Assembly (NCBI GenBank): GCA_035577445.1
Contig: DATLVM010000223.1
Coordinates: 1 to 53,970 of the forward strand
DNA from: Pyrinomonadaceae bacterium
GTDB lineage: Bacteria; Acidobacteriota; Blastocatellia; Pyrinomonadales; Pyrinomonadaceae
Direction of reading: 5' to 3'
Length of the DNA stretch: 53,970 bases
A model generated the notes under the pieces. It was not told the origin of the DNA. It saw only the letters and a list, made by a program, of their open reading frames with translations, and did not search any database. A program made the translations under genes and the position numbers. How positions within the stretch are numbered: the stretch's first letter is position 1; each line of letters begins with the position of its first letter. Of the stretch, positions 965 through 53,970 are shown piece after piece.

Positions 965-966
965 CC

Positions 967-4600: not shown

Positions 4601-4685
4601 CAAGTAAACTGACGCTATTTTAGCAACTTAACATTTTAATCTATACAAGCTCTTTTTCGTTTGCCCTGAAGTCTTTCGAGAAGCG

Positions 4686-6757: not shown

Positions 6758-7705
6758 ATGTGCGCGGCCGGAGGACTTATGGAAATCATTCTTCGCGCCC
6801 TTCAAGAACTTTGGCGACTATTCTCCTCAAAAGTCTGGAAACCCTTCAGGGACACCTTTATCGGATCCATAGAGATGCTCTGGCTGGCGAAGTGTATGGC
6901 CTACGTTGTTTTGTGGAGTATGAAGCAAACAACTCGGCGCATTTTGGATGCCTCGGGAATCGTGCTTCTCTTTTCCAGCCTACATTTCATGCTTGAGTCT
7001 ATCTCTACTGTGTTCCACGCTGAGTTGTTCAGCGTCACGAAGACAGTAGGAGTCCAAGGAGCGGTCATATTTGTGGCAGGTTGGATGGTCTTCCATAACC
7101 TCAGAGAACTAAGGGCGCGCCGGCGAAAGTCCGTTGTCGTAACCAATCTGGCGATGTTGCTGCAAGAGTTAGGGGGCACAGACTTGGCGGTAGGAGATGC
7201 AAATGTCAGAGAGCAAAAGTTGAATAAATTTGTTACCAAAGCGTCCGTTGCATGTATGAGTAGTTTCGACAAGAAGCTTTGCGTTAAGATGAGTATAATG
7301 TTACCGAGCGACACTGACGGTAAGCTGCGAATCCGTTTCTATGCTGAAGACGCCGGCTACGATACGGATTTCGCATTGGCAAAAGGGGACGGTGCTGCCG
7401 GTAAAGCATATGAAAACAACCACGCCGTCTATGTCCCAGCCGTCAAACAGAGACAGGGTATTACAATATCGTTTCCTGTGAAAAAGTACGGTTTGGCGCC
7501 AAACGTATATTCTCAAGCGAAAGTGGAGCCCTATCAGTCAATTCTCAGCGTCCCTATTCCGACGTTGAATTCAGAAATCCATGACGTTCAGGGTATCTTA
7601 AACCTTGACTCAATCAAGAGAGACGCCTTTACAAGCAGTGATGTCGAGACTGCCCACGCCTTCGCCAGCGCCGTCGGTTTGGCGCTTGACATTCACAAAT
7701 CCTAA
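6758..7705 (+). CDS. membrane-anchored GAF-like domain protein
   Basis: Two to three hydrophobic N-terminal segments (MLWLAKCMAYVVLWSM, GIVLLFSSLHFMLESI, GAVIFVAGWMVFH). The C-terminal half has a GAF-like pattern (GAAGKAYENNHAVYVPAV ... ILSVPIP ... VQGILNLDS). An alternative ATG lies at 6779. Confidence 0.6.
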   Translation: MCAAGGLMEIILRALQELWRLFSSKVWKPFRDTFIGSIEMLWLAKCMAYVVLWSMKQTTRRILDASGIVLLFSSLHFMLESISTVFHAELFSVTKTVGVQGAVIFVAGWMVFHNLRELRARRRKSVVVTNLAMLLQELGGTDLAVGDANVREQKLNKFVTKASVACMSSFDKKLCVKMSIMLPSDTDGKLRIRFYAEDAGYDTDFALAKGDGAAGKAYENNHAVYVPAVKQRQGITISFPVKKYGLAPNVYSQAKVEPYQSILSVPIPTLNSEIHDVQGILNLDSIKRDAFTSSDVETAHAFASAVGLALDIHKS

Positions 7706-7749
7706 GCCTAGAATTCGGCTGGTTTTAGCACCCACATCGGAGGGGGCTT

Positions 7750-7983
7750 ATGAGTGACAAAGTAATGAACTATGGCCTGCAAAACCCTGTAGGGGTTGGG
7801 TATGCAGTTCCTCCAGCAAATGAGTATTCAACATCCCCACCAGGATCTGTAGAAGACTTTTCTGCCCGAATCAATGCATCCATAGAGTCTGCTTGGAGTC
7901 CGCAAAGCGAGACTACTCTTCGCGGTTTTGTTGGGGCCGTAGTCAAGGTCGCCAAAGAGGGGATAAAACAAAGCGAAAAGTAA
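7750..7983 (+). CDS. small hypothetical protein (77 aa)
   Basis: ATG is preceded by a strong SD (GGAGGGGG). It is followed by an intrinsic terminator at 8042..8080. No recognisable motif. Confidence 0.5.
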   Translation: MSDKVMNYGLQNPVGVGYAVPPANEYSTSPPGSVEDFSARINASIESAWSPQSETTLRGFVGAVVKVAKEGIKQSEK

Positions 7984-8041
7984 CAAGAGCAAGCTTTAAC
8001 GAGTAATAGTAGCTTGCGGTCTGATATCGCCATTTTCATAA

Positions 8042-8080
8042 GACCCGCGCTGGTGATGTGTTCACCGCGCGGGTCGTTTT
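8042..8080 (+). terminator. rho-independent terminator
   Basis: Perfect 9-bp stem: GACCCGCGC (8042-8050) pairs with GCGCGGGTC (8067-8075). It is followed by GTTTT. Confidence 0.6.
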
Positions 8081-8434
8081 GATTCCCTACGACAATAGTC
8101 CCGTCGCGTCTACGCCAACCGCCCAATTTAGCCGCTTGAGTAGCGGTAACTATGATGGAAACCAGGGAAAAGTTCACCAACTATGAGAATCCAGAATCAA
8201 TAACTTTGAGAAAGTGCCCGTAAGTTGTTGTACCCTCGTCAACCAGATTTCAATAACTATGAGAACCTAGAAATAATAATGTCGGTTCTCAAAGTTAGTG
8301 ATATCCGCACCATAGTTAGAGATATCCTTCTCGTCGTTAGCGATTCCGTGGTGTTGAGTCGGCCAAAAAATTAATCTCAGCCGAGGTTTTTCGCAGACGT
8401 GCGGAAAGAAATCACGCAAGCCAGAAAGGAAACG

Positions 8435-9508
8435 ATGTCAACCACAATAAGTCCAGATTCAGCTCCTACGATTAGCTCTCTCAGTCCGGGAAACGGCCCA
8501 GTAACTGGTGGAACGACCGTAACAATTAAAGGTCAGAATTTCGTGTCAGAATGCAAAGTGACTTTCGGCAAGGCGGAAGCGCAAATCAAAATCTTCCGCA
8601 GTAGCCAATTGTCCGTAATTACGCCGCCGCAGTCGACCACTGGAGAATTTGATGTGACGGTCGTCAATCCGGGCGGGCAACATGGCACATTGAAAAATGG
8701 TTTTGTTTACCAGGTCCCGCCGCCCCCGGTGATCGGCTCGATTAACCCGACACATGGACCTCAAGGCGGGGGAACGCAAACAACAATCTCGGGCCAGAAT
8801 TTCGTAAACGGATGCAAAGCGGTGTTCGGTGGCATGGAAGCGCCCGTGGTTTTCGTGAGCAGCACGCAACTCTCTGTTATTACACCGCAGCAGACAAGTG
8901 CGGGAGTGGTTAAGGTGGAGGTGGTGAATCCCGACCTGCAAGCCGGAGTGTTGCCGAGTGCTTTTCAGTACGATCCGCCGCCGATCATCCTTGAATTGGT
9001 CCCCAACAGCGGACCGGTGGCTGGCGGGACGCAAGTAACCATTCAGGGGCAGAACTTTGCAGCAAAATGCAAAGCGATTTTCGGCAGAGATGAAGCCGCA
9101 ACGACTTTCAATTCCGCTAACCAGCTATCCGCCATCACCCCGGCACAAAAGAACGCGGGATCGGTTAGTGTGAAAGTGGTTAATCCGGACGGGCAATCGG
9201 CAGTCATTCCGAATAGTTTTCAATATGAGAACCCACCGGCGCCCGCGCCCGTGATCACCTCAATCAACCCAAGCAGCGGAACCTTTGGGACAATAGTGAC
9301 CATTCGAGGGGAAAACTTCGAATACCCATGCACGGTATTATTCGGCAAGGTTCTGACCATCGCACCGCCACCCCGCAACGGCTCCGAATTGGAAGTGAGC
9401 GTACCGGGGCAGCGAACCGCCGGACCGGTCGATGTAACGGTAATCAATCCGGGTGGGGAGTCCAGCACCTTGCCGAATGCTTTTCAGTACAACGAGGACG
9501 ATACGTAA
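8435..9508 (+). CDS. IPT/TIG repeat protein (four tandem ~90-aa Ig-like repeats)
   Basis: Four repeats of the pattern I-x-S-(L/I)-x-P-x-x-G-P-x-x-GGT-x-V/T-TI-x-GQNF ... C-K-x-x-FG ... L-S-(V/A)-ITP ... V-x-V-VNP. ATG at 8435 lies after AAAGGAAAC; the GTG at 8399 in the ORF track is less likely. Confidence 0.8.
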   Translation: MSTTISPDSAPTISSLSPGNGPVTGGTTVTIKGQNFVSECKVTFGKAEAQIKIFRSSQLSVITPPQSTTGEFDVTVVNPGGQHGTLKNGFVYQVPPPPVIGSINPTHGPQGGGTQTTISGQNFVNGCKAVFGGMEAPVVFVSSTQLSVITPQQTSAGVVKVEVVNPDLQAGVLPSAFQYDPPPIILELVPNSGPVAGGTQVTIQGQNFAAKCKAIFGRDEAATTFNSANQLSAITPAQKNAGSVSVKVVNPDGQSAVIPNSFQYENPPAPAPVITSINPSSGTFGTIVTIRGENFEYPCTVLFGKVLTIAPPPRNGSELEVSVPGQRTAGPVDVTVINPGGESSTLPNAFQYNEDDT

Positions 9509-9738: not shown

Positions 9739-10167
9739 ATGAACAATCGGACGCTGGCGTATGCGCTCGCGCGAATCGCTTACGGAATAACCTTTCTTTT
9801 TTACGGCATCGGGAAATTCAGAGGCGGTCTTTCGAATTTTGTCGGCGGCATGAATCAACAGTTCTCTGGCAAATTGCCGGCCGCGATGGTCATGCCGTTT
9901 GCCTATTTCATTCCGTTTGCCGAGACGATTTCCGGTGCGCTGATTTTGCTCGGTTTGTTTACTCGCGTGGGACTCACACTCTCTGGCGTCTTGCTGATTG
10001 GTTTGACGTTTGGCCTCGTCATACTGGGGCAAGCGCAAATCGTAGCTCACAACCTGCAATACATTCTGCTGAATTTTGTGCTGCTGTGGTTTGTCGACTT
10101 CAATTCGATTTCGATTGATTCATTGATTAGCAAACGACCCGCCGTGGGGTTTACACGTTCGGCATAG
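9739..10167 (+). CDS. DoxX family membrane protein
   Basis: Four hydrophobic helices. N-terminus LARIAYGITFLFYGIGKF is typical of DoxX. ATG at 9739 is chosen over the upstream ORF-track start. Confidence 0.7.
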   Translation: MNNRTLAYALARIAYGITFLFYGIGKFRGGLSNFVGGMNQQFSGKLPAAMVMPFAYFIPFAETISGALILLGLFTRVGLTLSGVLLIGLTFGLVILGQAQIVAHNLQYILLNFVLLWFVDFNSISIDSLISKRPAVGFTRSA

Positions 10168-10190
10168 TCAAAGTTGGAAAGGGATGGGGT

Positions 10191-10850
10191 ATGAGATTCA
10201 GAGTCTGCGTTCTGCCGTTATTGCTTTCTAGTCTGGTCGCTCTCATAGCTTCACCGAATCCCACGACTTCCGCGCGAGCTAGTAATGCACAACCTGCGGG
10301 TACGACTCGCTATCGCCTCGATCCATCGCAGAGTAAATTCGTCGCGCATGCTCTGCCCGGTGGCTTGCTCTGGTTCAAGGGTCACGATCATTTGGTGGCA
10401 GCGCGCGAGTTTAGCGGCGAAGCCGAATTGACCACCGACACCATCAATCCTGCGTCACTGTTGTTGGTCGTCAAGTCCGATTCTATGGGTGAGACAAACG
10501 CGGTCTTCACCGATCAGCAGAAACAGATCATCGACAAAGAGCTGCGCGAGATAGTTTTGTTGCCGGCGCGATATCCGGACATCACGTTCAAGAGCACGGA
10601 GGTGAAGGGCAAACCCGGGAGCAATGAGTACGATTTGAAAATCGGTGGTGACTTAACCTTGCTCGGCGTGACACGTCATATCGAAATCCCCACGCACGTG
10701 ACAATCAGCGGAAATGATTTGCGCGCGCGCGGCGAGTTCTCGATCGACCGCTCCGACTTCAAAGTGAAAGCCACTTCCGCCTTTCACGGCATGATTCGTG
10801 TCCGCAATAAGATCAAATTCAGTTTCGATATAGTCGGTCATCAAATTTAA
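10191..10850 (+). CDS. YceI-like periplasmic protein
   Basis: Signal peptide present. YceI-like pattern: YRLDPSQSKFVAHA ... YPDITFKSTEV ... GDLTLLGVTRHIEIP ... FSIDRSDFKV. DoxX-YceI adjacency is common. Confidence 0.75.
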   Translation: MRFRVCVLPLLLSSLVALIASPNPTTSARASNAQPAGTTRYRLDPSQSKFVAHALPGGLLWFKGHDHLVAAREFSGEAELTTDTINPASLLLVVKSDSMGETNAVFTDQQKQIIDKELREIVLLPARYPDITFKSTEVKGKPGSNEYDLKIGGDLTLLGVTRHIEIPTHVTISGNDLRARGEFSIDRSDFKVKATSAFHGMIRVRNKIKFSFDIVGHQI

Positions 10851-10915
10851 GAGAGCCGGAGACGCGGGTTGCCATCCGCATTGTTGTGCTGGCGGCGGAA
10901 CTTCGGAGGTGAAGT

Positions 10916-12481
10916 CTACCTTCCCATGCCGATCTTTTTGATAAACGATGCGATGGCTTCGTCCGCCGCTTGCGGCTGATCGTCAAGCACGAGCATCCGC
11001 GCGTTGGGAATTTTCACCAGCTCAAGCTGCAGGTGTTTCGGCACCAGTGTCTCCCATGAATCCAGGAACGCCGGCTTTGCAAACGCGTTCGCCGGATCGG
11101 CCAGGAACTTCTCGTCAAAGGTCGGCACTAATGCCAGAATCGGTACGCGCAATTTCGCAAAACCCTGCGTCACATCTGAAGCCCAGAATTCACAGAGATA
11201 GCGAATCTTTACTTCCAGCGGCGCCGCCTCAAGTTCGTCCCAAGCCGTCTGTGCTCGCGTCGCATCGACGCTTAACAACTGTTGTCTCAAATCGCCATTC
11301 TTCCATGTTTCGGGTGTTACAAACTTGAACCACTTGCCGGCCCAACTCTCGTCGACGAAAGCGCCGCGGTCGGAATAAGCGATGGGCGTCTTGCGTGTCG
11401 GATCGGTCGGCGCCGCGAAGAATTGCACCAGGTTCGTGCCGGCGAGGACGACGCCACCAATCTGTTCGGGATGTTCAATCGCCAGCTCGATGGCCGCCTG
11501 CGCCGCCGGTTGACGTTCCGCAACGATCACGGGATGACTCAACTTTTCTTTGCGGATGAGATCGAGAATGTCCTGCTCGAGCCTGCGCGTCCAAGTGAGT
11601 TCGCTGAAGCTGGCGCCTGCCGCAGGCGTAGCGCGCGCCGGCGTTCCATTAAGTCCCGGCGGCGTGAGGAGAAAGATTTTGTATTGCGATTGATTTCGAG
11701 CGATGAAGCTCTCGAACGACCTGTTGCCCGAATACATTCCCGGCACCAGAATGAGAGCCTGTTTGCCCTGACCCGTCTTCGTGATCCTGGGCGGACGATT
11801 GCCCGGAAGCATCTGATAGTCTTTCGGCAGCGCGAGATTGTTGCGACTCACGTCGATCTCGCGTACTCCCGGCGTAGACTTTGACAGATCAATCGCCACA
11901 GATCCGGCATTGGGAAGGTCATCGTTGGTTTGTTGATTCGAGCCGACTGATGCGATCAATTTCATGGTCATCTTGTCGGTGATGTCGGTGCGCTTGACGC
12001 CGACGACAATCGCATCGCCCTCGACCCGAATTTGCAGATTGTTCTGATGCAGATTGGCCAGTTGCTTCGCGTTGACTCCGGCCACGTCAGCTACGCCGAC
12101 CGTTCCTGCAAAGCCGTTGGCAGCTCGCGTCACATTAGCCGTGACCAGCCGGTCGAATTTGAAAGTCTTGTTTGCTCCCCACCAATTGGCCTTGGTTGAA
12201 TCATCGCCGCCGGTGTCGATCGCGATGTTCACACCGAACGCGTCTTTGTTCGGTCGCCCGTAAAGCGCGATGCGGAACCAGAGCGTGTCCTGCTCTTTCT
12301 CATAGCGATAGGCGAGCTGGGCGGCGTCGGGCAGAGAAGGATCGCGGCCATCGCCTTTCGCGTCGAAGGTCACCGCCGAATAAATCTGCGCGTTTGCGAT
12401 TGCGGGCAAGGCCACAATCAAGGCGACGCAAAGCGTAGCCAACGCAATCCGCGTTAAGCGTCGACGTTGATGATTTGTCAT
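10916..12481 (-). CDS. secreted alpha/beta-hydrolase-fold protein with N-terminal beta-rich domain
   Basis: Signal peptide (LATLCVALIVALPAIANAQ). The C-terminal half has an alpha/beta hydrolase layout (ALILVPGMYSG ... VIVAERQPAAQAAIELA ... VLAGTN). The nucleophile motif is atypical. Confidence 0.55.
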   Translation of the reverse strand: MTNHQRRRLTRIALATLCVALIVALPAIANAQIYSAVTFDAKGDGRDPSLPDAAQLAYRYEKEQDTLWFRIALYGRPNKDAFGVNIAIDTGGDDSTKANWWGANKTFKFDRLVTANVTRAANGFAGTVGVADVAGVNAKQLANLHQNNLQIRVEGDAIVVGVKRTDITDKMTMKLIASVGSNQQTNDDLPNAGSVAIDLSKSTPGVREIDVSRNNLALPKDYQMLPGNRPPRITKTGQGKQALILVPGMYSGNRSFESFIARNQSQYKIFLLTPPGLNGTPARATPAAGASFSELTWTRRLEQDILDLIRKEKLSHPVIVAERQPAAQAAIELAIEHPEQIGGVVLAGTNLVQFFAAPTDPTRKTPIAYSDRGAFVDESWAGKWFKFVTPETWKNGDLRQQLLSVDATRAQTAWDELEAAPLEVKIRYLCEFWASDVTQGFAKLRVPILALVPTFDEKFLADPANAFAKPAFLDSWETLVPKHLQLELVKIPNARMLVLDDQPQAADEAIASFIKKIGMGR

Positions 12482-12544
12482 GGCAGTCCTCAGGTTGAAA
12501 CTACGAGACTGCGCGCTAAAAGGTTTTCGAAGGAGATTGGCTCG

Positions 12545-13783
12545 TCAGGCGCGAGTGCGGAGTCGCGGCGGCCGAACCCCGCTCCGCTCATAAATTCGCC
12601 GGCCTTTCCAGGTCACGCCCTTGCCGGTTGTAATTCTGATACTGGAATCAAACAACATCGCGTAGAGCAGACTCAGGCCAAGCGGAGCAGTCAGAGCATA
12701 GGCCGGAGAAACTTCGGAGCGGATGCTCGACATCGCCAGGACAATAACCTGTAGCAACCATGACAACGCGGCGGGAATGATCAAGAGCCGAAGGTCTGGG
12801 CTCGCGCCAGCCGTTATTCCAATCGCCGACGCCAACGCAATCAAGGGCGGGACGAGAGCCATTAAATACATCGAGCAGACGCAGACCAACGCGAACGGAA
12901 GTGAGAACTTAACTCCTGAAAACCAGTTTTTGGTACTGCACTCCCACATCTCGCCGAAGTTTCGATACATGCGTGTGCTGAGGAGATCCGGCGCGTATTC
13001 CGTAAGCAAACGGGCACCGGAACGCTTGATCATCTCAGCCAGGCGCACGTCTTCCATTACTTCATCACGCAAAGCTTCGTAACCGCCGACGCGTTCAAGC
13101 ACGGTGCGGCGCATCAGAAAGAAGCCGCCCATGCCGACAGCTCCGTGCGTCTTGGGGCTACTGATGCGATAGGCCAAACTAAAGATCAGCAGCACCCAAC
13201 CCCAGGTCGGGATCATCACGCGCTCCCAAAAAGAGCCGGCTTCAAAACGCGGGATCAACGTCATCGCATCGCCCTTTTCTGTCAGGATGCGATCCACTGC
13301 GGTGCGCAGAGCTGCCTTGTCAAAGATCATGTCTGCATCGGTTGCCAGTATCCATTCGCCGCGCGCGGGGGCGAGCGCTTGCTGCATGGCGTAGGGCTTC
13401 CCCAACCATCCGGCAGGTAAATCTTCGCCTGTAATTACACGCAGACGTGGATCGCATTTCGCGAACGATTCCAAAATCGTCCCGGTGGCGTCGGTCGAGC
13501 GATCATTGATAGCAATGACTTCAAACGATCCGTAGTCTTGAGCAAGAATTGAGCGGATACAGTCTGCGAGGACACGGTGTTCTTCGTTGCGAGCAGGAAC
13601 CAGGACCGAGACGAGCGGCACATCGCTCGCCGTCAGCCGCGAATCATTCAATCGCGACAAGTGCTTCTGCCGGTAGAGGCCATAAGCCGTAAGCACAACA
13701 CTCCCGACCCAGGCGAGAAAAAGAAGCGAGGCAAAGCCGGTCACGATCGCCAGCGCGTTTGATGCAAAAGAAACTGTGGGCAT
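12545..13783 (-). CDS. family 2 glycosyltransferase, membrane-bound
   Basis: Motifs: VSVLVPARNEE, EVIAINDRSTD, ATDADM (DxD). There are several C-terminal TM helices. The start is reset to ATG 13783 (MPTVSF...) because the 14011 start overlaps the neighbouring gene. Confidence 0.8.
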   Translation of the reverse strand: MPTVSFASNALAIVTGFASLLFLAWVGSVVLTAYGLYRQKHLSRLNDSRLTASDVPLVSVLVPARNEEHRVLADCIRSILAQDYGSFEVIAINDRSTDATGTILESFAKCDPRLRVITGEDLPAGWLGKPYAMQQALAPARGEWILATDADMIFDKAALRTAVDRILTEKGDAMTLIPRFEAGSFWERVMIPTWGWVLLIFSLAYRISSPKTHGAVGMGGFFLMRRTVLERVGGYEALRDEVMEDVRLAEMIKRSGARLLTEYAPDLLSTRMYRNFGEMWECSTKNWFSGVKFSLPFALVCVCSMYLMALVPPLIALASAIGITAGASPDLRLLIIPAALSWLLQVIVLAMSSIRSEVSPAYALTAPLGLSLLYAMLFDSSIRITTGKGVTWKGRRIYERSGVRPPRLRTRA

Positions 13784-40660: not shown

Positions 40661-41187
40661 TCATCTCTCTTCTAACTGATTTGCGATTTCCGACGGCATC
40701 AGTTGCCGAAGTTCCGGATAGCTCTCAGCGATCCGAATGAGATCCAGCTCGTCCTTCTTTCGTTTCGATAAGCGACGTTTCGGATCGCTCCAAGCCCAAA
40801 CTTTCCCACGTACGACATTTGCGAGCGAGGCTACCGGAACCTCGCAGCCCAGGACTGTGTTTCGTTCAGTATCCGCCAGGAAATTCTGATACCTCGGATC
40901 GGTGGTGAATTGAATTCGCAGTTCGCTGCCTTTCATTTGCGCGTTGACTGAATGCTCATGCTCAGTGACCTGAAATCCGGCAGCGCTCAATTCGTTCTGG
41001 ATCGTGGGTAGCGAAGCCGACACAACCACCATGTCAGCATCCATCGTGTATACCGGTTCGACATAGCAGTTGACTGCGAGTCCTCCGACCAAACACCACG
41101 GACCATGTTTGCTCAGAATCGTGATCACCGCAGCGAAATCGCTTGCGCCGCCGTTCGTAACCGACTCAAATATTTCGGTTGCCGTCA

Positions 41188-41188
<1 letters not shown>
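40661..41188 (-). CDS. nucleotidyltransferase-fold hypothetical protein
   Basis: VGGLAVNCYVEPVYTMDADMVV matches the minimal NTase G-[GS]-x9-13-D-x-D signature. Its ATG overlaps the fadA stop (TGATG). Confidence 0.55.
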
Positions 41189-42366
<1,178 letters not shown>

Positions 42367-44904: not shown

Positions 44905-44918
44905 GGCGGTAGATAATA

Positions 44919-44938
44919 CTGAATGAGTATTCATTCAG
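44919..44938. promoter_or_regulatory. palindromic operator-like site CTGAATGA-GTAT-TCATTCAG upstream of fadN
   Basis: Perfect 8-bp arms with a 4-bp spacer, 15-34 nt upstream of the preferred fadN ATG. Confidence 0.6.
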
Positions 44939-44976
44939 CAAGCTTCGCAACGGTTTTTCTCAGTCAACTCCGACGC

Positions 44977-45040
44977 TGTGGGTTCGGTCATAAAGTGAGA
45001 TTGGTAGGTCATAAAGTGAAATCCTTCTGTCATAAAGTGG
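44977..45040. repeat. transposon end A: three phased copies of the GGTCATAAAGTGA motif
   Basis: TCATAAAGTG starts at 44988, 45009 and 45030, an exact 21-bp phasing. A degenerate copy (TCATAATG) lies at 45063. Confidence 0.8.
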
Positions 45041-45178
45041 TGCGGAGAAATAGGGGTTTGATTCATAATGCTGCTACTCAAACCTAATAGCTTCCACCAT
45101 AAGACTCCGCGCATAAAGAGGCTGGAGAAAGACGAGCACTAACGACATTGGGTCGGAATCATTGCTATCAGAAATTAG

Positions 45179-45207
45179 TTGACTGCCGGCATAGATTGGA
45201 ATATTTT
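45179..45207 (+). promoter_or_regulatory. sigma-70-like promoter candidate for the cargo operon
   Basis: TTGACT (45179-45184), a 17-nt spacer, then TATTTT (45202-45207). It lies about 210 nt upstream of the first cargo ATG. Confidence 0.4.
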
Positions 45208-45415
45208 CTTATCCGCATTTACCAACAGGCTGGTCCTCAGAGCCTACCCCTTTTATGGCGTTCTCTTCAGTACTAGCCTCTTACTAAGCCAATCAGGCTG
45301 GTTTGGCCACCAGTTTCCCAATTTCTAATTCTAAAATGGCAAGGGGAATTAGAATCACGCGATCGAAAATAGGCTGGAAAAGCTCGGTTCCAATCAGGAA
45401 GGGATAAATTGAAAC

Positions 45416-46603
45416 ATGTCAACACCTCACATGCTTTCTACTAACTTATATCTGTCTAACACGGCCAATGTACTTTCAGCCGGCCAACAACTGCGAGACA
45501 TGTTGGGCGAAGATGTCGAGACGCTGGATTACGCAGTGACACGTTTGGAAGAAGCCTCCAGAAATCAGGAAGATGGGGCGACTAAGTATCGTGCGTTCAT
45601 GTTCGCTGAGCTGGAGACGAGCGGAGCTGTGCAAAAAGAGAGGCGAGAAAGGATAACTGAAGATGTATTTGCCAGTGTACTGACGGATCTGCAAATAGCG
45701 AACGTGTTAATGGCAGCGGGAAATGCCGTAGGAGAGACTAATGGCGACTCAAGGCCTCAATTGCTTGACGAAGCTTTGAACGATTTGGATGAGACGACTC
45801 CGGTGATTCAAAGAGGTCTATCCAGTCCACTGGCCAAAGGGTCAGAGCCAGGTCGTTTCAACTTTTCAGGAACTTCTGCTCAACCAACTGTTTTCACATC
45901 AGCCGACGTAGCCTCTGCCGTTCAAACCTTTCAGAAAACTTCCTATGAGACTCTGGATAAGCTTGTCGGCGGTGTCCATGAGGTAGCCCTTGGCGTTTTC
46001 GACGCCTTACAACGGCTTGGTCCGCAAGAAATATTAGAAGCGCTGAACCAATTGGGAGGACCCGTGCAAACCTTCACCGGCATGATACGTCGGTTGATTA
46101 ATCAGGGAATCCAGAAGATGAAACAAGCCCTTGACGATTTGGTCCGCCTGATAGGCAACGATGCGATCGCGAAACTGAGAGACAAGATCAAAGAATTGTG
46201 GAAAGACAGAGAGCAGGGAATAATCGATAAGCTTCTAGCCAAGATTGTCGGCGTTGAGAACACGCGTGCCAGTATTACAACCATCTTGAGTCTCGAGGGG
46301 ATTGACAGGGACACTGCGGATCGCGGCAGCAACGATCTGTCACAACTCTTGATTCCGTACAGGAACAATGTGGAAATGGCAAAAAAAGCTGTGAAAGCGA
46401 TCAGCTTTGGCAGCAGCGTGCTAATCTTGACGCCAATTGCCGGTCATCATATAGCGCTATTTGCGGCTTCCTCTTATCTGATAATCCTAACGGCTGTCAT
46501 TCTGATTGCAATGGACTATGCCGACTCAGGGGGCATTCTTCAGCGCGTTCGCGGGGTAGGCGAGATTGCCGAGGGCCTCCGAGCACACGGGACCGTCCAA
46601 TAA
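45416..46603 (+). CDS. hypothetical helical protein with C-terminal two-helix membrane anchor (cargo gene A)
   Basis: RBS AGGAAGGG. 395 aa, predicted largely helical from composition. The C-terminus contains AISFGSSVLILTPIAGHHIALF and SSYLIILTAVILIAMDY. No signal peptide. Confidence 0.7.
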   Translation: MSTPHMLSTNLYLSNTANVLSAGQQLRDMLGEDVETLDYAVTRLEEASRNQEDGATKYRAFMFAELETSGAVQKERRERITEDVFASVLTDLQIANVLMAAGNAVGETNGDSRPQLLDEALNDLDETTPVIQRGLSSPLAKGSEPGRFNFSGTSAQPTVFTSADVASAVQTFQKTSYETLDKLVGGVHEVALGVFDALQRLGPQEILEALNQLGGPVQTFTGMIRRLINQGIQKMKQALDDLVRLIGNDAIAKLRDKIKELWKDREQGIIDKLLAKIVGVENTRASITTILSLEGIDRDTADRGSNDLSQLLIPYRNNVEMAKKAVKAISFGSSVLILTPIAGHHIALFAASSYLIILTAVILIAMDYADSGGILQRVRGVGEIAEGLRAHGTVQ

Positions 46604-46645
46604 TCCGGGAATTATAGGCAAGCCACCACTTGGTAAGGACGAACA

Positions 46646-47842
46646 ATGTCGGGTTTAGAGCGTACCGCTTTGGATGAAAAATCCCTCATATTAGTACATG
46701 TGCGTGCCCTGCTTGAGCAACTCGATTGGGCCGAGTCTTCATTGCGCACCACTGGTATCGAGCCTCGGATAATGGAGGCCGCGAGAGTTGGTTTTGCCGT
46801 CTTATTTAAGCAGAGGCGAAATGAGCTGACGCGTATGCAAGCCTCAATCGCTAAAGGCGCGATACAGGCCGACGCCTGGAAGCAATTGCGAACCTTCAGG
46901 CGTTCATGCGCAGAGCTCTTCAAGGAGTGTCTTGAGTTTCTGGGGGGCGCCATGCTCCGTGCCGCGCATAAAAAAGATGACATTTGCGAAATTGCGGACG
47001 CCCTATTAATTGAATTAAGTCGCAATACCCCGATTCAGTGGAAAGGCGTCACGCTGTTGGCCGAGGCCAATTTTTTTACCGAGACGACGGGGCTGATACG
47101 TTTACCGTTTCCCGATTACGGTATCTGGAACTTGCCGATTGCGGTCCATGAGCTCGGACATTTCATTGGACCTCGGATTCCCGATGGAATGGGCGGCTTT
47201 CCATTCCAAGCGCTTCAACAAAATGTCCCGGCTAGCCTCTCAGTCAAAGGCGTGGAACAGGAAAAATCTCATTTGCGGGAACTCTTTTCTGATCTGTTTG
47301 CGACGTATGCCCTGGGCCCTGCCTATGCTTGTTCTTGTATCCTACTGCGTTTCGATCCTCAAGATGCCACGGCTTGCGAGGACAGCGAAACACATCCCAG
47401 CCATGCCAAACGCGTCCATTTCATTCTTAAAGCGCTTGACCAGATGAGTAAAACTACTGAGGGATGGCCTTATGCGAACATGATCGACCACCTGCAAGCT
47501 CTTTGGGATCGGATTCTGACACGCGCCGGGCACGAAAAATGTCTCGACGAAAAAAAGATTCCGCCTCTTAACTACCAGTTGTTTGAACTCTACCCGATAC
47601 TCGCCAAATTTGTGCCGACAGTTCAATACGACGGTTGGGACCGCGCCGTTGCACTGAGTAACGAACTGTCGCTTGGCCGGAAACCGGCGGCGCTCCTGCA
47701 AGCTGAGGATACAATCGCTGACGTGCTTAATGCCGCCTGGTTATGGCGGCTGCGACAAAATGTTGAGAACAGCAACACTGTGCATCAGGTGAATCTTGAA
47801 GCTATTGCCCTGTGTCGCGAGGTCATCGGCGTCGGCCGATGA
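46646..47842 (+). CDS. HExxH zinc-metallopeptidase-like protein (cargo gene B)
   Basis: LPIAVHELGHFIG is followed 40 residues later by RELFSDLFATYALGPAY, a candidate third-ligand Glu and gluzincin-like helix. RBS AAGGACG. Confidence 0.7.
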   Translation: MSGLERTALDEKSLILVHVRALLEQLDWAESSLRTTGIEPRIMEAARVGFAVLFKQRRNELTRMQASIAKGAIQADAWKQLRTFRRSCAELFKECLEFLGGAMLRAAHKKDDICEIADALLIELSRNTPIQWKGVTLLAEANFFTETTGLIRLPFPDYGIWNLPIAVHELGHFIGPRIPDGMGGFPFQALQQNVPASLSVKGVEQEKSHLRELFSDLFATYALGPAYACSCILLRFDPQDATACEDSETHPSHAKRVHFILKALDQMSKTTEGWPYANMIDHLQALWDRILTRAGHEKCLDEKKIPPLNYQLFELYPILAKFVPTVQYDGWDRAVALSNELSLGRKPAALLQAEDTIADVLNAAWLWRLRQNVENSNTVHQVNLEAIALCREVIGVGR

Positions 47843-47921
47843 CCATGAACTCTTGACTCCTGATAAGACTGCTTATCAGGTTCACAAGAGTTCGCGCCGA
47901 AGTGAACAAGGAGAATGTGAT

Positions 47922-49229
47922 ATGGACCTCATCATTAAAATACGATTAGAGGCACTGAAAAATAACTTAACCAAGATCCGCCAGATCTTAGAATCGGTGA
48001 AGGGCCGGCGATACGAGATCGATGAGTTGAGCAACGGTCTAACCCTTTCCCAGGAAAAGCTTGACTTGGTGGGGGAAAACGTCACGAACGTTTTGAATAC
48101 ATCACGAAACACATTCGCCAGGAAGCAAATAGATGAAGGTCTCACGCGGCTGTTGGAAGTCGCCGAAGAAAAGGCAATTAGTCTCCGTCAAGACTTAGAG
48201 AAGACCAAGGAAGCCATTAAGGCGATACAGACTCGATGGACGCTGATAGAAGAAGGATTTGAAGCTAAAGTTAAGGAAGATCTAGATGACAAGATTGGCT
48301 CATGGTTTAACGAAATCGACGATGACATCAAGGCGCTCAGCGGCGCCCCATCCAGCGTATTGAATAAGCAAATTGAAAAAGCCTGGGGCGACTATAACAA
48401 AATCATGTCGCAGCAGAGCCAACTTGTTTTCTCTAACTATGTGGAATTTCTTGGCGGGCTAGCGTTGCGCGGCGCTGGCCTTGATGAAGGAATCTGCCGG
48501 ATAGCCGATGAGCTAATGCGAAGTTGCGGCTCATTTGGAACAACCCATTGGTCGGCGCTGACCATTCCGGCGAGTCAAGAAGCCATGACGCTGGCGCGCA
48601 GCATTCGCGTGCGATTTCCGGAGTGGACCATATGGGCCGTTCCGCTTACGGCCCACGAATTAGGACAGGTCGTGATAAGAGGCAACTCTAAACTTGAAAG
48701 TTACATTAATATGCAATACCCGGCTCGCACTAAGAAAACCATGAAGAAGGCCATGAAAGGCCAACAGCATATGCGCATCTATTTGGCGGATGCTTTTGCC
48801 ACTTATGTGATGGGGCCTGCCTATGCCTGCTCCGTAATCCTGCTTCGATTCAATCCCCTGTCAGACAATCAAGACAGCGACTATCCCGCAGATGCCAAAC
48901 GAGCACACGTTGTATTAAGTACGTTGAAGAAGATGGGGAGCGATCCGCTTATTGGCACGCCCTACGAGGATATTGTCGATAAATTGAAAATCGAATGGGA
49001 TGCTGCCCTCGCTCAGGCACAAACCCAAGCCCCCGCGACTTGGGACGAAGACGTAATGCTCCTCGATGGATGGATTGATCGTTTATTGGAAGAACTAAGC
49101 ACGACCTATCCCAACAGCCTATATCAGGGCGGACTGTGGAAGAGCACGCGAGAGGCCTTGAAGCTTCTTCTTAAGGGCGAAGACCCCGGAGGTAAATTGA
49201 AAGGGCGCGAAGATTGGGGGACGTGCTGA
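47922..49229 (+). CDS. coiled-coil + degenerate (HELGQ) zincin-like paralog of gene B (cargo gene C, main frame)
   Basis: ATG 47922 lies after AAGGAGA. It aligns with gene B through EFLGG, ICxIAD, IWxxPxxxHELG, FATYxxGPAYACSxILLRF and AKRxHxxL. It has HELGQ instead of HELGH and RIYLAD instead of RELFSD. The frame ends at TGA 49227-49229 just after a G5 run. Confidence 0.7.
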   Translation: MDLIIKIRLEALKNNLTKIRQILESVKGRRYEIDELSNGLTLSQEKLDLVGENVTNVLNTSRNTFARKQIDEGLTRLLEVAEEKAISLRQDLEKTKEAIKAIQTRWTLIEEGFEAKVKEDLDDKIGSWFNEIDDDIKALSGAPSSVLNKQIEKAWGDYNKIMSQQSQLVFSNYVEFLGGLALRGAGLDEGICRIADELMRSCGSFGTTHWSALTIPASQEAMTLARSIRVRFPEWTIWAVPLTAHELGQVVIRGNSKLESYINMQYPARTKKTMKKAMKGQQHMRIYLADAFATYVMGPAYACSVILLRFNPLSDNQDSDYPADAKRAHVVLSTLKKMGSDPLIGTPYEDIVDKLKIEWDAALAQAQTQAPATWDEDVMLLDGWIDRLLEELSTTYPNSLYQGGLWKSTREALKLLLKGEDPGGKLKGREDWGTC

Positions 49230-49408
49230 ACGCAGCCTGGGCCTGTCGGGTTGATAACGTGGACGAGTCCCTGAAGATTGCTAAGAACGCCGAAGAACTG
49301 TGGCGCCAGATTGAAAAGAAAAAGAGTGAGACTCCAGAGCGTCAGGTCTCCTCATCTGGATATCCAGCAAACAGAGTTCCCCGCATTCAAGCGGACAAGA
49401 AGTCATGA
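49214..49408 (+). CDS. C-terminal segment of cargo gene C in the -1 frame
   Basis: GDVLNAAWACRVDN aligns with ADVLNAAWLWRLRQN near the C-terminus of gene B. Its stop overlaps the ATG of the TPR gene (ATGA at 49405-49408). Confidence 0.6.
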   Translation: MGDVLNAAWACRVDNVDESLKIAKNAEELWRQIEKKKSETPERQVSSSGYPANRVPRIQADKKS

Positions 49409-51795
49409 CAACCAAAAACTCGCGAAGTCGACATTCGAACGCCACCGGCCTGCCGCTGACTAATCTGGAAAGCAGATTTGATCTGGCCCCAGCCGTGCGC
49501 TTGCCCAGTCCCGATTCTTTCGCGCCATACCGATCGGATCTTAACCGGGCTTTGAGCGAATATAATCTGGCAAACTTTGACGAAGCCAAGTTAATCCTTA
49601 GCAAGCTGTCGTCAGGTCTAAAACAGATCCTGGACACTAAAGTCAAAGACAGTGGGCAAGCTCATTTGTTATACGCCTCGACATTGACTGCTCTAGGTCG
49701 GACTTGCGAACGATTGGGCCAGGAAAAAGGCGCCACCAGCGCCTTCGAAAAAGCAGCGGCGGAGTTCAAAAAGTGGATTTCCGAAGCAGAAGAACCCGCC
49801 GATCAGTTGTATTCAGATTACGGCGTAGCCCTTTTTAAGATTGCGCGCCCAAGGTTAACCATTCAAGTTTTTCGCGAGGTTCTCAAGCGAGGGACTCTTA
49901 ACGCTGAGAGCAATCGTTATATGGGCATCTGCCTGGGTCGACTAGGCAAATACAAGGAGGCCGAGGAGCGTTTTAGCGAAGCTCTCAAACAAGATCCGGA
50001 TCACTACATGACGCATAAGGCCCTGGGTGAGATGCTTGCAAAGCAGGGCAAGATTCATGAAGCAGTGGTCGAATACCACGCCACAGTTCTTTATATGGTC
50101 GACTCCGGATTGGCGGATGAGGCTCTCGATATTTTGGAACACATCCTGAAGTTGACAAAGCGGGATTCGCAATACCTCGCGCTCAAGGGAGAGATTTTAC
50201 GTAGTAAGGGCGATTTAAAGGGCGCGTTCAGAGCCTTAAATCAGAGTCTCAAGCGCCAGCCAAAAAATGCATTTGCCAGCGCCGTAAAGGGCTTGGTGTT
50301 GTTAGCGTTGAATAAGAATGAGGAGGGCGTTCGCCTTCTGGAGAAAGCCCTTAGGTTGGACTCGACCCTCGACTGGGTGCCCCTGGAATTGGCTAACGCT
50401 CAATATAGGATGAGACGTTACAAAAGGGCTCTGTCCGCTTTGAATCAGGCTCTGGCTAGAGACCCTGGCAATGTGAGCGCGTTGTCTCATAAGGCAGAAA
50501 CCCTAAATGCTATGGGTCGAAACACCGAAGCCCTCCTGGTTTTGGACGAAGCCCTCAAACTCAAACCAGACGCACTCCTCCTGGGGTTAAAAGGACGAGT
50601 GCTACGCCACTTGAATCGCTACGAGAAAGCCCTCAAGGTCCTGCGAGCGTCGATAAATCTTGACGCTCGTGTTGCCTGGGTTCATGCAGAGTTAGGCGCC
50701 GTTCTTTATGCTCTTGGCCAAAACGAAGAAGCGCTCCAAGCGGTGATTGACGGCCTCGCAATTCAGCCAGATAACGTCTTTGCCTTAAGTTACAAGGGTG
50801 AGATCCTCCGAGCGCTCGAAAAAAGCGAGGAGGCGCTGCAAGTCATGAATCAAACCCTGGCATTGTCTCCCCACGATCCCTGGGCACTCGGCACTAAAGG
50901 CCAAGCGCTTCGCGATGTGGGGCGGGCCGGAGAAGCTATTGACGTCCTGCAACAGTCAATCGAACTTGACCCGACATTAGCGTGGGTACACTTAGAACTA
51001 AGCGCAGCGCATTATGGTCTGGGCCACTACCGGTCCGCCTTGGAATCGCTAGACAAGGCGTTGCGACTCCAGAATGATAGCGATTGGTACCTCTTCAAAG
51101 CTCACATCCTCTGTGAGGTCGCCGAGTTCAAGGCTGCGGTCAAGGCCCTGCACCGCGCAATCCAAATTAATAGGAATGTCGCAGAGGCGTTCGGCCTTTT
51201 GGGATGGGCCTTACAACATCTCGGAGTCAAGCAGGCAAGAAACACATTACAGGCTTATGAATCTGCCGTAAACCTGGAGCCGGATAACTTATGGTGGCAT
51301 AAAGGCGTCGCCAACAGTCTCTACCTAATGGGCAACCAAAAGGGAGCTGCCGCCAAATACAGATGGGTCGTGGAGCAAGCTAGAAGGCGGGCTAAAAAAG
51401 AAAATGCTGAGGCAAAATTTCTGTCGCTGGTCGCTTGGTGCCAATATCGTCTCGGGAAGTGCGAACAGGCCGTACAACTATTCAGTGAGGTTATTTCGCT
51501 CGATCCGCAGCAGTTTGCCAGCCAATTCGATTTAGCTTTGTCTCTGATTTGTTGCGGACGTTATAGTGAAGCGTTGCGCGAGTATAACCGCGGAGTAAGA
51601 GCCTCGATGGAATTACCCGCACTACGGTGTCGCAGCCTGACCTTTGTGGCTTTGTACGACCTCAACATAGCCGTGAGAATGCACCGTCAGTTAGCAGAGG
51701 TAGAAGAGTTAAATGAAGCCCGAGCTCTGCTCGAAACTACCTACAAGCAATCATCGGAACTTGGCGCTCTGAGCCAGACTGTAGCTCCGGAATAG
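49405..51795 (+). CDS. large TPR-repeat protein (cargo gene D)
   Basis: 796 aa. There are more than 15 consecutive 34-aa TPR-like units with the pattern A-x3-L-x2-AL-x-L-x-P-x3-A/W repeated throughout. Confidence 0.85.
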   Translation: MTTKNSRSRHSNATGLPLTNLESRFDLAPAVRLPSPDSFAPYRSDLNRALSEYNLANFDEAKLILSKLSSGLKQILDTKVKDSGQAHLLYASTLTALGRTCERLGQEKGATSAFEKAAAEFKKWISEAEEPADQLYSDYGVALFKIARPRLTIQVFREVLKRGTLNAESNRYMGICLGRLGKYKEAEERFSEALKQDPDHYMTHKALGEMLAKQGKIHEAVVEYHATVLYMVDSGLADEALDILEHILKLTKRDSQYLALKGEILRSKGDLKGAFRALNQSLKRQPKNAFASAVKGLVLLALNKNEEGVRLLEKALRLDSTLDWVPLELANAQYRMRRYKRALSALNQALARDPGNVSALSHKAETLNAMGRNTEALLVLDEALKLKPDALLLGLKGRVLRHLNRYEKALKVLRASINLDARVAWVHAELGAVLYALGQNEEALQAVIDGLAIQPDNVFALSYKGEILRALEKSEEALQVMNQTLALSPHDPWALGTKGQALRDVGRAGEAIDVLQQSIELDPTLAWVHLELSAAHYGLGHYRSALESLDKALRLQNDSDWYLFKAHILCEVAEFKAAVKALHRAIQINRNVAEAFGLLGWALQHLGVKQARNTLQAYESAVNLEPDNLWWHKGVANSLYLMGNQKGAAAKYRWVVEQARRRAKKENAEAKFLSLVAWCQYRLGKCEQAVQLFSEVISLDPQQFASQFDLALSLICCGRYSEALREYNRGVRASMELPALRCRSLTFVALYDLNIAVRMHRQLAEVEELNEARALLETTYKQSSELGALSQTVAPE

Positions 51796-51991
51796 GCAAT
51801 GCTAGCCGCCTGCGACTCTTCCAAGGTGCCTTCGTTCGAATACCTGCGCTGAAACCAGGTAGGCGATCTGTCGTTAGCCGGTCGCGAAAGTTAGGAGTGA
51901 CGAAAACTCAAGACGGCAAGGGGCAAAAAGGCTCTGAACAAATTCATAGCAAAATAAAACTGCCTCCCCGGAGGCGGACATAGGAAACTTT

Positions 51992-52120
51992 CAACTTATG
52001 CCCGAAAACTGTAGGAAATTTTCACGTTATGCCCGACTTTATTTTCACTTAATGACCGAATCGCGCCTATAAGTCGTTGATACCACGTAGAAGCTATTTC
52101 ACTTAATCACCGAACCCACA
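51992..52120. repeat. transposon end B: four copies of the inverted subterminal motif
   Basis: The reverse-complement motif occurs as CAACTTATGC (51992), CACGTTATGC (52023), CACTTAATGA (52046) and CACTTAATCA (52100). Each is followed by CCGA(A/C). Confidence 0.8.
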
Positions 52121-52565
52121 GACGCCGCCGATGCGCAAGCTTCTTACGTCGTGCAACAACAATCGGGAGCAACTAGATCGAAAACGCCACGAAGCCGCCA
52201 AGATTAGAAAATAGAAGAGCGAAAGTATCCAGCCTGTAGACGACCGGCCCAAGACCCCAGGATTCTCCGCGACCGTCTTTGCCTTTGCTCAAGGCACTCA
52301 ACGAAAATTGCGCCGAGCGAACCCGCCAGATTTTTTTCTCAACAACTAAACCTTTCCGCAGCAACACCCACTTATAGCGATGTCTGGAGAAGACAAGCGA
52401 CCTATTCAAGGGGAAAACCTGAAACCCATCGATTGTCGCTCGCGCTACGCCAAAAAAAATGAATTACCAGCGGTTAAATACTCATGGCGGCTATCGCTTA
52501 TTACGGATGCGGCGGTAACACAAAACGCCTTGTTAAAGCGTCCATTCAGCTAAAGGAGATCAACC

Positions 52566-53160: not shown

Positions 53161-53429
53161 GATCCGATCGAACAGTACGAAGACGATCCGAACATGACCG
53201 TGGTCGACGCCGGCAGCCGAAACCTGATCGTCGCTTATCCTGACGAAATTCTCTTTGAGGGATTGACAAGATGGTGCGCAACGACATCGGACGCTTACCG
53301 GTTGTCAATCGCGAGCATCCGCGGCAGCTTGTAGGGCATCTCGGCCGGGCGGCGGTAATGACCGCACGGCTGCATCGTCACAGAGAAGAGCATGAACGCG
53401 AGCCGGGATGGTTGCAAAGATTGGCGTAA
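53161..53429 (+). pseudogene. remnant of the C-terminal CBS-domain region of a larger gene (frameshifted, N-terminally truncated)
   Basis: 53271-53429 encodes MVRNDIGRLPVVNREHPRQLVGHLGRAAVM..., a typical second CBS motif. The preceding frame reads ...NLIVAYPDEILFEGLTR and is offset by one nucleotide. No upstream body of the gene is present. Confidence 0.45.
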
Positions 53430-53519
53430 TCACTTTGTGCTTTCTCGTGGGACTATTCACGTCGCCGGGTGCCTATCTCAAAAACGTGAATGCGCCGCGG
53501 GCATGTAAAGCACGCACGT

Positions 53520-53936
53520 CTAGCAGGCGGGAACTACGCCTGGACTGAGGACGATCACGCAACCGCCGCCTGGAGTCTGTTGATTCTCGTCGTTGTTTCC
53601 GAGCGCCACGGCCAGCAGGATCGCGACTGCGCCGCCGACTCCAAAGATGATTCCGAGAGTCTTCTTCTTGTTCGAGGAATTCTGGGTCTGCTGTTGCCCG
53701 GTTTGTACAGGGCTGGTCGACAGGCTCTCTCCGAATTTGAGGAGACGCGCCTGGCCGTTGTGATGAACTTCGACTTCGCCACTCATTACAGACAGCTTTG
53801 TGCCGGCACACTCAGTTGCCTCAACCATTATTAAAACGGCTTCATCGACTGACTTCTTATTAATCGAGACGTCCGCGGTACTGAAATCCAGATCTATGCC
53901 CGCGGGAATGTTGAGCAACGCACGCCCGGTGTGCAT
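53520..53936 (-). CDS. hypothetical protein with FecR-like beta segment and a TM helix
   Basis: GTKLSVMSGEVEVHHNGQARLLKFGES resembles a FecR-domain strand pattern. Hydrophobic LGIIFGVGGAVAILLAVALG is present. It lies near the window edge and the start is uncertain. Confidence 0.35.
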   Translation of the reverse strand: MHTGRALLNIPAGIDLDFSTADVSINKKSVDEAVLIMVEATECAGTKLSVMSGEVEVHHNGQARLLKFGESLSTSPVQTGQQQTQNSSNKKKTLGIIFGVGGAVAILLAVALGNNDENQQTPGGGCVIVLSPGVVPAC

Positions 53937-53970
53937 CGACCCGAGTACGCGCCGCTCTGAAGACTCGATC

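Follow-up and report, generated by a model that had tools for sequence, protein, structure and literature searches.

A stretch of 53,970 nucleotides from a Pyrinomonadaceae bacterium (contig DATLVM010000223.1 of assembly GCA_035577445.1; hereafter the window) carries, just upstream of its fad operon and beside the promoter of fadN, a 7.1-kb element that is bounded by transposon ends and filled with cargo genes. We found that it belongs to a large, undescribed family of elements in Pyrinomonadaceae/Blastocatellia soil Acidobacteria, which unites the anatomy and behaviour of a Tn7-like transposon with the gene content of a mobile insertion cassette (MIC). The explanation that we consider probable is that these are non-autonomous elements of the Tn7-like type, which are moved in trans and directed to an attachment site by a TnsD/TniQ-like or guide-based selector. 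A preliminary description of the same DNA, made from the sequence alone, had recognized the window copy as a transposon; to this our analysis adds an attachment site in a promoter/operator that is used family-wide, the building of islands by head-to-tail insertion and a transposase that is unaccounted for.

The inverted repeats, the target duplication and the subterminal repeats lie at the positions that the preliminary description had given, and their agreement is far beyond chance. At the left junction the sequence reads CAACTCC-GACGC-TGTGGGTTCGGTCATAAAGTGA (44972-44998; the longer left flank is CAGTCAACTCC), while at the right junction TCACTTAATCACCGAACCCACA-GACGC (52099-52125) is followed by the outer flank CGCCGATG (also given as CGCCGATGCGC). 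The 22-nt arms are equal at 20 of 22 positions, with the first 12 all matching, and a repeat finder lengthens them to 26 nt with 88% complementarity. The terminus TGTGGGTTCGGT at 44977 and its reverse complement ending at 52120 place 5'-TGT...ACA-3' within the inverted repeats, as is the case in Tn7-like elements; the ends open with 5'-TGTGGG, and this terminus recurs in ~260 ends of the family described below. A degenerate 22-mer covering both arms has exactly two sites in the window, in inverted orientation, and none in 100 dinucleotide-preserving shuffles; the chance probability of the 5/5 match between the flanking GACGC pentamers is 1/1024. Further inside, three repeats with a 21-nt spacing are found on the left (44983, 45004 and 45025) and four with spacings of 31, 23 and 54 nt on the right (51989, 52020, 52043 and 52097). 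This asymmetric arrangement of multiple ~21-nt repeats, contiguous at one end and spaced at the other, marks them as putative transposase-binding sites. The G+C content is 0.47-0.52 within the element, lower than the 0.55-0.57 of the fad flank. Scans of the element for Rfam families, promoters and terminators returned nothing above background.

We scanned one genome per species (596 Gb, both strands) for exact matches to the pattern TGTGGGTTCGGTNATNAAGTG, which has 19 specified bases, and recovered 69 blocks against ~4 estimated by chance. All but two of these, from 52 assemblies, belong to Pyrinomonadaceae, Blastocatellia or unclassified Acidobacteriota (67/69); the two outside Acidobacteriota, in Micromonospora and Rubrivivax, have no further repeats and look like chance matches. 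A looser pattern applied to the JGI metagenomes yielded at least 119 further blocks; the assembly from which the window comes (ERZ27256715) likewise derives from a soil metagenome. Intact copies are borne by complete genomes or long contigs such as OY970193.1, CAVRTN010000004.1, JBASRE010000059.1 and CAWGWK010000001/2. The resulting census comprises at least ~260 ends in at least ~190 contigs or loci, from which the counts given below are drawn. The end pattern, covering both of the end subfamilies described below, has no match in 2.9 million viral contigs, the end sequence has none in a plasmid collection, and literature searches returned no description of this transposon family.

The family ends fall into two classes, namely those with three to four contiguous sites, like the window end at 44977, and those with spaced sites, like the window end at 52120. 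The contiguous architecture recurs in ~99 family ends, and the spaced-site block of ~140 nt is 75-93% identical between copies (~100 other family ends). Since the spaced-site class (100 ends) was defined by a motif resembling the binding site of integration host factor (IHF) between the first and second sites, the presence of this motif in all its members is by construction; it occurs in none of 70 contiguous-site ends, and inspection of the unprocessed ends shows the spacer that holds it to be visibly conserved. The fadN target site is also used by a second terminal subfamily, TGTGGGATCCGGCATTAAATGAAAT. Most copies agree in all of their terminal 25 nt, whereas the fadN DNA of the same genomes is only 72-81% identical, which argues for functional constraint or recent spread. 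Complete pairs of ends enclose elements from 408 bp to 7.1 kb. The smallest (L064, 1644-2051), which resembles a miniature inverted-repeat transposable element (MITE), is devoid of open reading frames (ORFs) and occupies the fadN site; it pairs a spaced-site end with a contiguous-site end of the second subfamily, and its flanks differ, with 2/5 positions matching. As a separate observation on the window copy, a G+C-rich hairpin, GCCTCCCCGGAGGC, at 51962-51975, lies immediately inside the distal end and is followed on the minus strand by a T-run, in the manner of a terminator. It could block transcription coming from outside the element.

A BLASTN search with the left flank of the window showed that in ~24 genome blocks a contiguous-site end abuts the 5' end of a fadN homologue. 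When the flanks were aligned by the element terminus, a conserved 30-nt block came into register in 24/24 of these genome loci, whereas the intervening 34 nt, up to the terminus, show no relationship between genomes. In the window the block contains the palindrome TGAATGAGTATTCATTCA (44920-44937), the only one of its kind there, which the preliminary description had rightly placed 39 nt from the element end as an operator-like sequence of fadN. On the fadN strand we read the block as a predicted promoter with TTGCTG as the -35 and TATTAT as the -10, separated by 17 nt that include the FadR-type palindrome. The census places 53 ends, contiguous-site or unclassified, at 28-44 nt from the block, mostly at 32-35 nt with a mode of 33/34; none of 102 spaced-site ends adjoins it. 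The orientation of insertion at the block is invariant, with the contiguous-site end proximal. The insertion point in the window is the preferred attachment site of the family and not an incidental one. The element had earlier been taken to have separated the fad operon from its former upstream region; instead, it lands just outside the fadN promoter, 32-35 nt from the block, and hence leaves the promoter intact. Many other ends are found away from fadN in varied contexts, and a search of these for a shared motif or a second FadR box found none. Thus, the family also inserts elsewhere.

A pair of contigs from one metagenome-assembled genome, JBBPID01, of a different species from that of the window, is relevant to the duplicated pentamer. 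In one (L011, end at 5388) GACGC flanks a contiguous-site end at fadN, and in the other (L060, end at 2134) it flanks, in the same sense, a spaced-site end that is 93% identical to the distal end of the window copy. The pentamer is that of the window, while the rest of the 34-nt spacer is different. The sharing of GACGC between JBBPID01 and the window could be due to chance, target preference or shared ancestry.

Evidence for transposition comes from the flanks of other copies. Among 16 convergent pairs of contiguous-site and spaced-site ends, a perfect 5-bp duplication is seen in four (GACGC in the window, TCGTC in L043, AGTTC in L045 and GGCTG in L178) and a 4/5 match in three more, against ~0.016 perfect duplications expected by chance. 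These duplicated or flanking pentamers vary between genomes while the termini are constant, which excludes the crossover of a site-specific recombinase in a shared core and points to staggered cleavage followed by repair. Further, ~48 ends lie directly beside an end of the opposite type that belongs to another element, with a spacer of 5-8 nt in all but two cases, thereby forming head-to-tail stacks. Renewed insertion at one target position, with a wobble of 0-3 nt, would produce such stacks. Several of them combine a copy with perfect termini, proximal to the attachment site, with a displaced copy bearing 4-6 mismatches, which suggests a time order of insertions. The abutting ends speak tentatively against effective target immunity, the displaced copies often being degenerate.

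The two closest relatives retrieved (L202 and L203) encode FadN proteins 94% and 91% identical to that of the window and have an identical promoter/operator block, with no end and no repeat motif within 22 kb. The region 53197-53970 of the window is syntenic with 5433-6175 of L202. As these relatives keep the block without the element, the 7.1 kb are not ancestral sequence; an ancestral origin would have spoken against the transposon reading. As to the empty target sites that had been anticipated, the closest relatives are free of the element, but the exact predicted junction CAACTCCGACGCCGCCGATG was not confirmed in either of them, the DNA beside the promoter being too variable to align. Taken together, the recurrence of the ends around different cargo, the other 5-bp duplications, the relatives without the element and the lack of any transposition gene among its own genes support the earlier view that the transposon is of the Tn7/Tn5053/Mu type, non-autonomous and filled with cargo only.

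The cargo differs in almost every copy of the family. The commonest class, found in 22 loci, consists of eukaryote-like Ser/Thr kinases fused to tetratricopeptide repeats (TPRs) or WG repeats (for instance, L169 3452-6610, L018 4116-6557 and L069 3-1751). Several other copies carry defence genes, such as a pAgo with a PD-(D/E)XK nuclease (L009), STAND NTPases (L010 and L051), Thoeris (L075) and a type III restriction-modification-like system with an N6/N4 methyltransferase beside a ResIII-family helicase (L077), and there are also TonB-type barrels, hydrolases and two-component proteins. Clustering of the ORFs from all loci revealed one recurrent non-cargo gene inside the ends, encoding a DUF3854 protein of 383-435 aa. 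Its start lies 85-300 nt inward of the contiguous-site end; 11 loci have an intact copy and ~15 a truncated one, and the gene is followed by one or two small ORFs with PASTA domains. A functional link between these small PASTA-domain proteins and the Ser/Thr kinase cargo is possible. The window copy and many others are without the DUF3854 gene; since it is pseudogenised or absent in so many copies, it cannot be needed in cis.

We considered this protein, with its Zn-ribbon and Toprim domains, as a candidate new transposase and rejected it, as an AlphaFold2 model searched with Foldseek points to a DnaG-type primase. The best match of the model is the Aquifex primase 2au3 (E=7.6e-8), the top 35 matches are all DnaG, T7 gp4 or T4 gp61, and no RNase-H-like fold was found among them. 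Divergent homologues of the primase occur in elements resembling integrative and conjugative elements (ICEs) in L079, L204 and L205-L207 (in L205 at 10001-11233). Their gene order is SLT, a TraG-like ATPase, unknown proteins of 630-720 aa, a class II-type ribonucleotide reductase, the primase, a small ORF and a tyrosine integrase, which abuts secG-tpiA-pgk-gap. In the plasmid collection the primase has only distant clostridial DUF3854 matches.

With Tn7 at glmS and the Tn7-like Tn6022/AbaR elements at comM, the family shares TGT...ACA termini, ~21-22-bp repeats that are contiguous at the proximal and spaced at the distal end, 5-bp duplications, insertion at a fixed distance and in one orientation into non-conserved DNA, and the formation of cargo or defence islands (PMC11014353, PMC8649781). 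The same fixed distance, fixed orientation and non-conserved insertion point are established for TnsD at attTn7 (PMC11014353). The family differs from these elements in that its site is a promoter/operator upstream of a gene rather than the 3' end or interior of a coding sequence, in that the gene beside the right-type end, where present, is a DnaG-type primase, and in that neither tnsA/B/C nor tniQ/tnsD is found in the window copy or in any of the ~190 family loci. As these defining proteins were looked for and not found, the element is not strictly a member of the Tn7-like family.

In lacking a transposase gene the family also has parallels among non-autonomous elements. MICs such as those related to IS231 of Bacillus comprise transposon ends around passenger genes and coexist with an identifiable parent insertion sequence (IS) with the same ends. 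In common with MICs, MITEs and the Tn3-derived TIMEs (Tn3-derived inverted-repeat miniature elements), the present family has ends around passenger genes without a transposase, multiple copies with duplications and a MITE-sized member, the above-mentioned L064. Unlike MICs, it has no parent element that we could find, its ends are of the Tn7-like multi-site kind rather than simple IS inverted repeats, its insertion is directed to an attachment site, its cargo can comprise several genes, and all sampled members appear to be non-autonomous.

On the reading that we favour, a DDE transposase of the TnsB/TniA/MuA kind would bind the repeats (GGTCATAAAGTGAAAT) and pair the ends, after which the 3' CA-OH ends would be joined to target phosphates staggered by 5 bp. 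A sequence-specific selector, either TnsD/TniQ-like or based on a guide RNA, would recognize the fadN promoter/operator block and fix how far from it the element inserts, in the manner of TnsD at glmS. Both transposase and selector would be supplied in trans by a helper that is absent from every locus examined. The repeated use of one site would then stack elements head-to-tail, so that accessory genes, among them defence and kinase genes, would accumulate in a variable island next to the fad operon.

The helper was sought in several ways. The four ORFs of the window copy have no match to a transposase, an AAA+ ATPase or a recombinase in Pfam, NCBIfam, PADLOC or PHROGs, nor do they contain an rve or Mu-transposase Pfam domain. 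We also assembled a reference panel of Tn7 TnsA-E (R721), Tn402 TniA/B/Q/R (R751) and MuA/B, used singly and as profiles, and ran it on ORFs from all six frames of the window, of the genome (69) and metagenome (119) blocks and of ~15 extended loci (~1.4 Mb in total). That this panel has reach is shown by TnsB and TniA, which recover one another in it at E=1e-17. These searches bear out the statement of the preliminary description that the element has no transposase, ATPase or resolvase gene.

Several results nonetheless weigh against the reading given above. No credible match to TnsB/TniA, TnsC/TniB, TniQ/TnsD or MuA/MuB was found in the ~1.4 Mb around the ends, where only marginal panel matches (E ~0.004-0.009, 10-14 bits) on short spurious ORFs were seen; the sampled blocks extend at most 8-22 kb, such that a helper distant from the ends or with diverged ends would be missed. 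All of the ~16 complete elements are transposase-free, and clustering and Pfam analysis of the ORFs inside the ends revealed no recurrent family except cargo and the primase. The many ends in unrelated, motif-less contexts require that a second, non-specific pathway be assumed. Finally, the frequent tandem stacks do not fit the strong target immunity that is normal for Tn7-like elements and has been measured for Tn6022 (PMC11014353). The two notable departures from the Tn7 model are hence the want of any autonomous copy among ~260 ends and tandem stacking where Tn6022 shows immunity (PMC11014353).

A cognate autonomous element with matching ends was likewise not found in the genome blocks, the metagenome blocks or the extended loci, and long contigs walked outward from the primase homologues led to cargo or ICE-like elements with no tns genes. 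Autonomous relatives with tnsB-, tniA- or istA-like genes had been expected at the outset; there are none in the ~190 loci. Accordingly, of the earlier statement that the element is mobilised in trans, the non-autonomy holds, and the mobilisation in trans stays conjectural. Similarly, other copies of the ends do exist in number, as had been asked, while the cognate transposase is not among the searched loci. One TniA-like (rve) match, in L158, was rejected as a helper: it belongs to an IS3-family IS (12042-13630; OrfA/OrfB with the rve domain) that landed 25 nt inside a transposon end and split it.

A tentative and somewhat unlikely alternative is that the entire family in Pyrinomonadaceae/Blastocatellia consists of cargo-only 'hitchhikers' that build a variable accessory/defence island at the promoter/operator site, with a host-domesticated, ICE-borne or unrecognised enzyme as the helper in place of a conventional TnsABC-TniQ module linked to the ends, and with the primase module as the sole self-encoded function. 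We also regard it as unlikely that the machinery is not of the canonical Tn7/Tn5053/Mu kind, being instead an unrecognised transposase family, a host-domesticated enzyme or an enzyme of the ICE-like elements that share the DUF3854 primase, in which case the primase module would support a replicative or extrachromosomal step. The lack of TnsB/TniA/MuA, TnsC/TniB/MuB and TniQ/TnsD matches in ~1.4 Mb around ~260 ends would fit such machinery; moreover, the sole conserved internal module, the primase with its PASTA ORFs, sits where Tn7-like elements keep their tns operon, its divergent homologues lie in ICE-like elements beside a tyrosine integrase, and the tandem stacking suggests the absence of target immunity of the TnsB/TnsC type. 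Yet the termini, the 5-bp duplications of arbitrary sequence, the arrangement of sites, the IHF-like site and the fixed targeting together form the signature of TnsB-type transposition. The primase itself offers this alternative little, given that its model matches only DnaG, T7 gp4 and T4 gp61, with no RNase-H-like fold, and that the gene is pseudogenised in ~15 copies and missing from the window copy and many others.

A transposase from a transposable prophage of the Mu kind or from an element of the Tn5053/Tn402 (TniABQ) type, in place of TnsABC and TnsD, seems quite unlikely. Five-bp duplications, TG...CA termini and multiple binding sites are common to Mu and Tn5053. The resemblance to Mu and mini-Mu further includes three sites per end, spaced at one and contiguous at the other, as in attL (spaced) and attR (contiguous), and the involvement of IHF, which is predicted for the present family; with Tn5053/Tn402 the family has in common the TGT termini, the repeated subterminal sites and orientation-specific targeting. 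The many copies in diverse motif-less sites are also what a pathway of low specificity would give. However, Mu inserts almost at random, and Tn5053/Tn402 targets the res sites of plasmids and Tn21-type transposons rather than a chromosomal promoter region; to our knowledge, neither keeps a set distance and a single orientation relative to a chromosomal promoter. The family and Tn5053/Tn402 have unrelated end sequences, no homologue of MuA/MuB or of TniA/TniB/TniQ/TniR was matched by the panel, and no viral contig among the 2.9 million searched carries the ends.

That the ends are the immobile relics of an extinct family, enclosing islands now inherited only vertically, is very improbable. The missing helper, the 4-6 mismatches in many degenerate ends, the many convergent pairs without matching duplications and the frequent pseudogenisation of the primase would all fit such decay. 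Against this, both the termini and the 5-bp duplications are perfect in the window copy and in several others, and the stacks with an intact proximal and a degenerate displaced copy imply successive insertions over time. The terminal 25 nt, too, are identical across species whose fadN DNA has diverged, and the cargo differs between close relatives, with the closest retrieved having no element at all. An integrative island of a tyrosine or serine site-specific recombinase with incidental inverted repeats is scarcely credible, for in spite of the site- and orientation-specific insertion beside a conserved sequence and of the tyrosine integrases in ICE-like elements sharing the primase, it is already contradicted by the variable flanking pentamers beside constant termini, which require staggered cleavage and repair, by repeats that are inverted and terminal rather than direct att repeats, and by the lack of an integrase in or beside the element.

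If the favoured reading is right, Tn7-style insertion at an attachment site can build a hypervariable island from transposase-free cassettes. The content of this island (pAgo, Thoeris, STAND NTPases, restriction-modification, kinases and unknown operons) is spread over at least 52 species-level genomes of a soil lineage that is abundant and hard to culture. A promoter/repressor-operator block, next to which elements land 32-35 nt beyond the -35, would add a new type to the known attachment sites, and the operon is predicted to stay expressed. Surveys of Tn7-like elements have been seeded with TnsB and other core genes and report only four acidobacterial species (PMC8649781). Because such surveys start from TnsB, families whose sampled members are all cargo-only are invisible to them. 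Should the helper be a compact TnsB/TnsC/TniQ set that recognizes a 30-bp DNA site, it would constitute a new scaffold for programmable insertion; should it be something else, that would be more surprising still. In either case the ends provide a practical handle for delimiting mobile cargo in Acidobacteria metagenomes.

Table 1. Coordinates of the element, its ends, its attachment site and its cargo genes in the window.
Feature	Position	Strand	Description
Whole element	44977..52120	+	7144 bp
Target-site duplication, left copy	44972..44976	+	GACGC
Target-site duplication, right copy	52121..52125	+	GACGC
Attachment-site-proximal end	44977..45043	+	terminal TGTGGGTT, then 3 contiguous ~21-nt repeats with core GGTCATAAAGTGA; equivalent of the Tn7 right end
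Distal end	51989..52120	-	terminal site and 3 spaced repeats (52043-52060, 52020-52037, 51989-52006); equivalent of the Tn7 left end
IHF-like motif TATCAACGACTTA (consensus WATCAANNNNTTR)	52070..52082	-	between terminal and second site of the distal end
Conserved fadN promoter/operator block	44913..44942	-	ATAATAC-TGAATGA-N4-TCATTCA-GCAAG; candidate attachment-site recognition sequence
Spacer between block and element	44943..44976	.	34 nt, not conserved between genomes; last 5 nt are the target duplication
Cargo gene 1	45416..46603	+	395 aa, coiled-coil-rich, 2 C-terminal hydrophobic helices; no family assignment
Cargo gene 2	46646..47842	+	398 aa, all-alpha, HExxH; predicted zincin-like metallopeptidase of an Acidobacteria-restricted family
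Cargo gene 3	47922..49229	+	paralogue of gene 2; 435 aa from ATG 47922 (source-assembly call)
Cargo gene 4	49405..51795	+	796-aa tetratricopeptide-repeat protein; TPR_2 at 6.6e-52 among others

The interior of the window copy is filled by four co-oriented ORFs (Table 1), among which the TPRs of gene 4 are the sole match in the Pfam, NCBIfam, PADLOC and PHROGs libraries. Gene 1 encodes a putative membrane protein. An alignment of gene 2 with its homologues shows the HExxH motif (H168, E169 and H172) together with D216 and H250 to be invariant. These homologues (n=161) are all unnamed, and those with a source name are all from Acidobacteria. The AlphaFold2 model of gene 2 has a predicted local distance difference test score (pLDDT) of 92, and a fold search against the PDB gave no significant neighbour, the best being ACE at E=0.58. 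Gene 3, for which the mechanical ORF begins at TTG 47796 and spans 477 aa, is 36% identical to gene 2 over 199 aa (E=2e-33); it is probably non-catalytic, since HELGQ stands where gene 2 has HExxH. The same four-gene cassette, beginning with gene 1 and in identical order, occurs in three other contigs (L199-L201) without transposon ends or repeat motifs, in one of which it lies between genes for a TonB-dependent-type barrel and TonB_C/TPR proteins. We infer that it is an ordinary chromosomal operon that was captured between transposon ends, and it probably constitutes an envelope-associated metallopeptidase system.

Two further observations concern other parts of the window. A second stretch of low G+C (0.45-0.50 as against ~0.55) covers positions 1-9000, in which a scan with the degenerate 22-mer found no ends of the transposon family; it encodes a PAS histidine kinase of 1053 aa, a response-regulator protein of 585 aa and a choice-of-anchor-Z repeat protein. 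In the fad operon, an ORF of 175/176 aa with only a faint AbiEii match lies between fadA and fadE (40661-41191, minus strand), and L202, the closest relative, instead has a ParE/antitoxin pair between fadN and fadA (12462-13028). Thus, the fad operon itself seems to gather small selfish modules.

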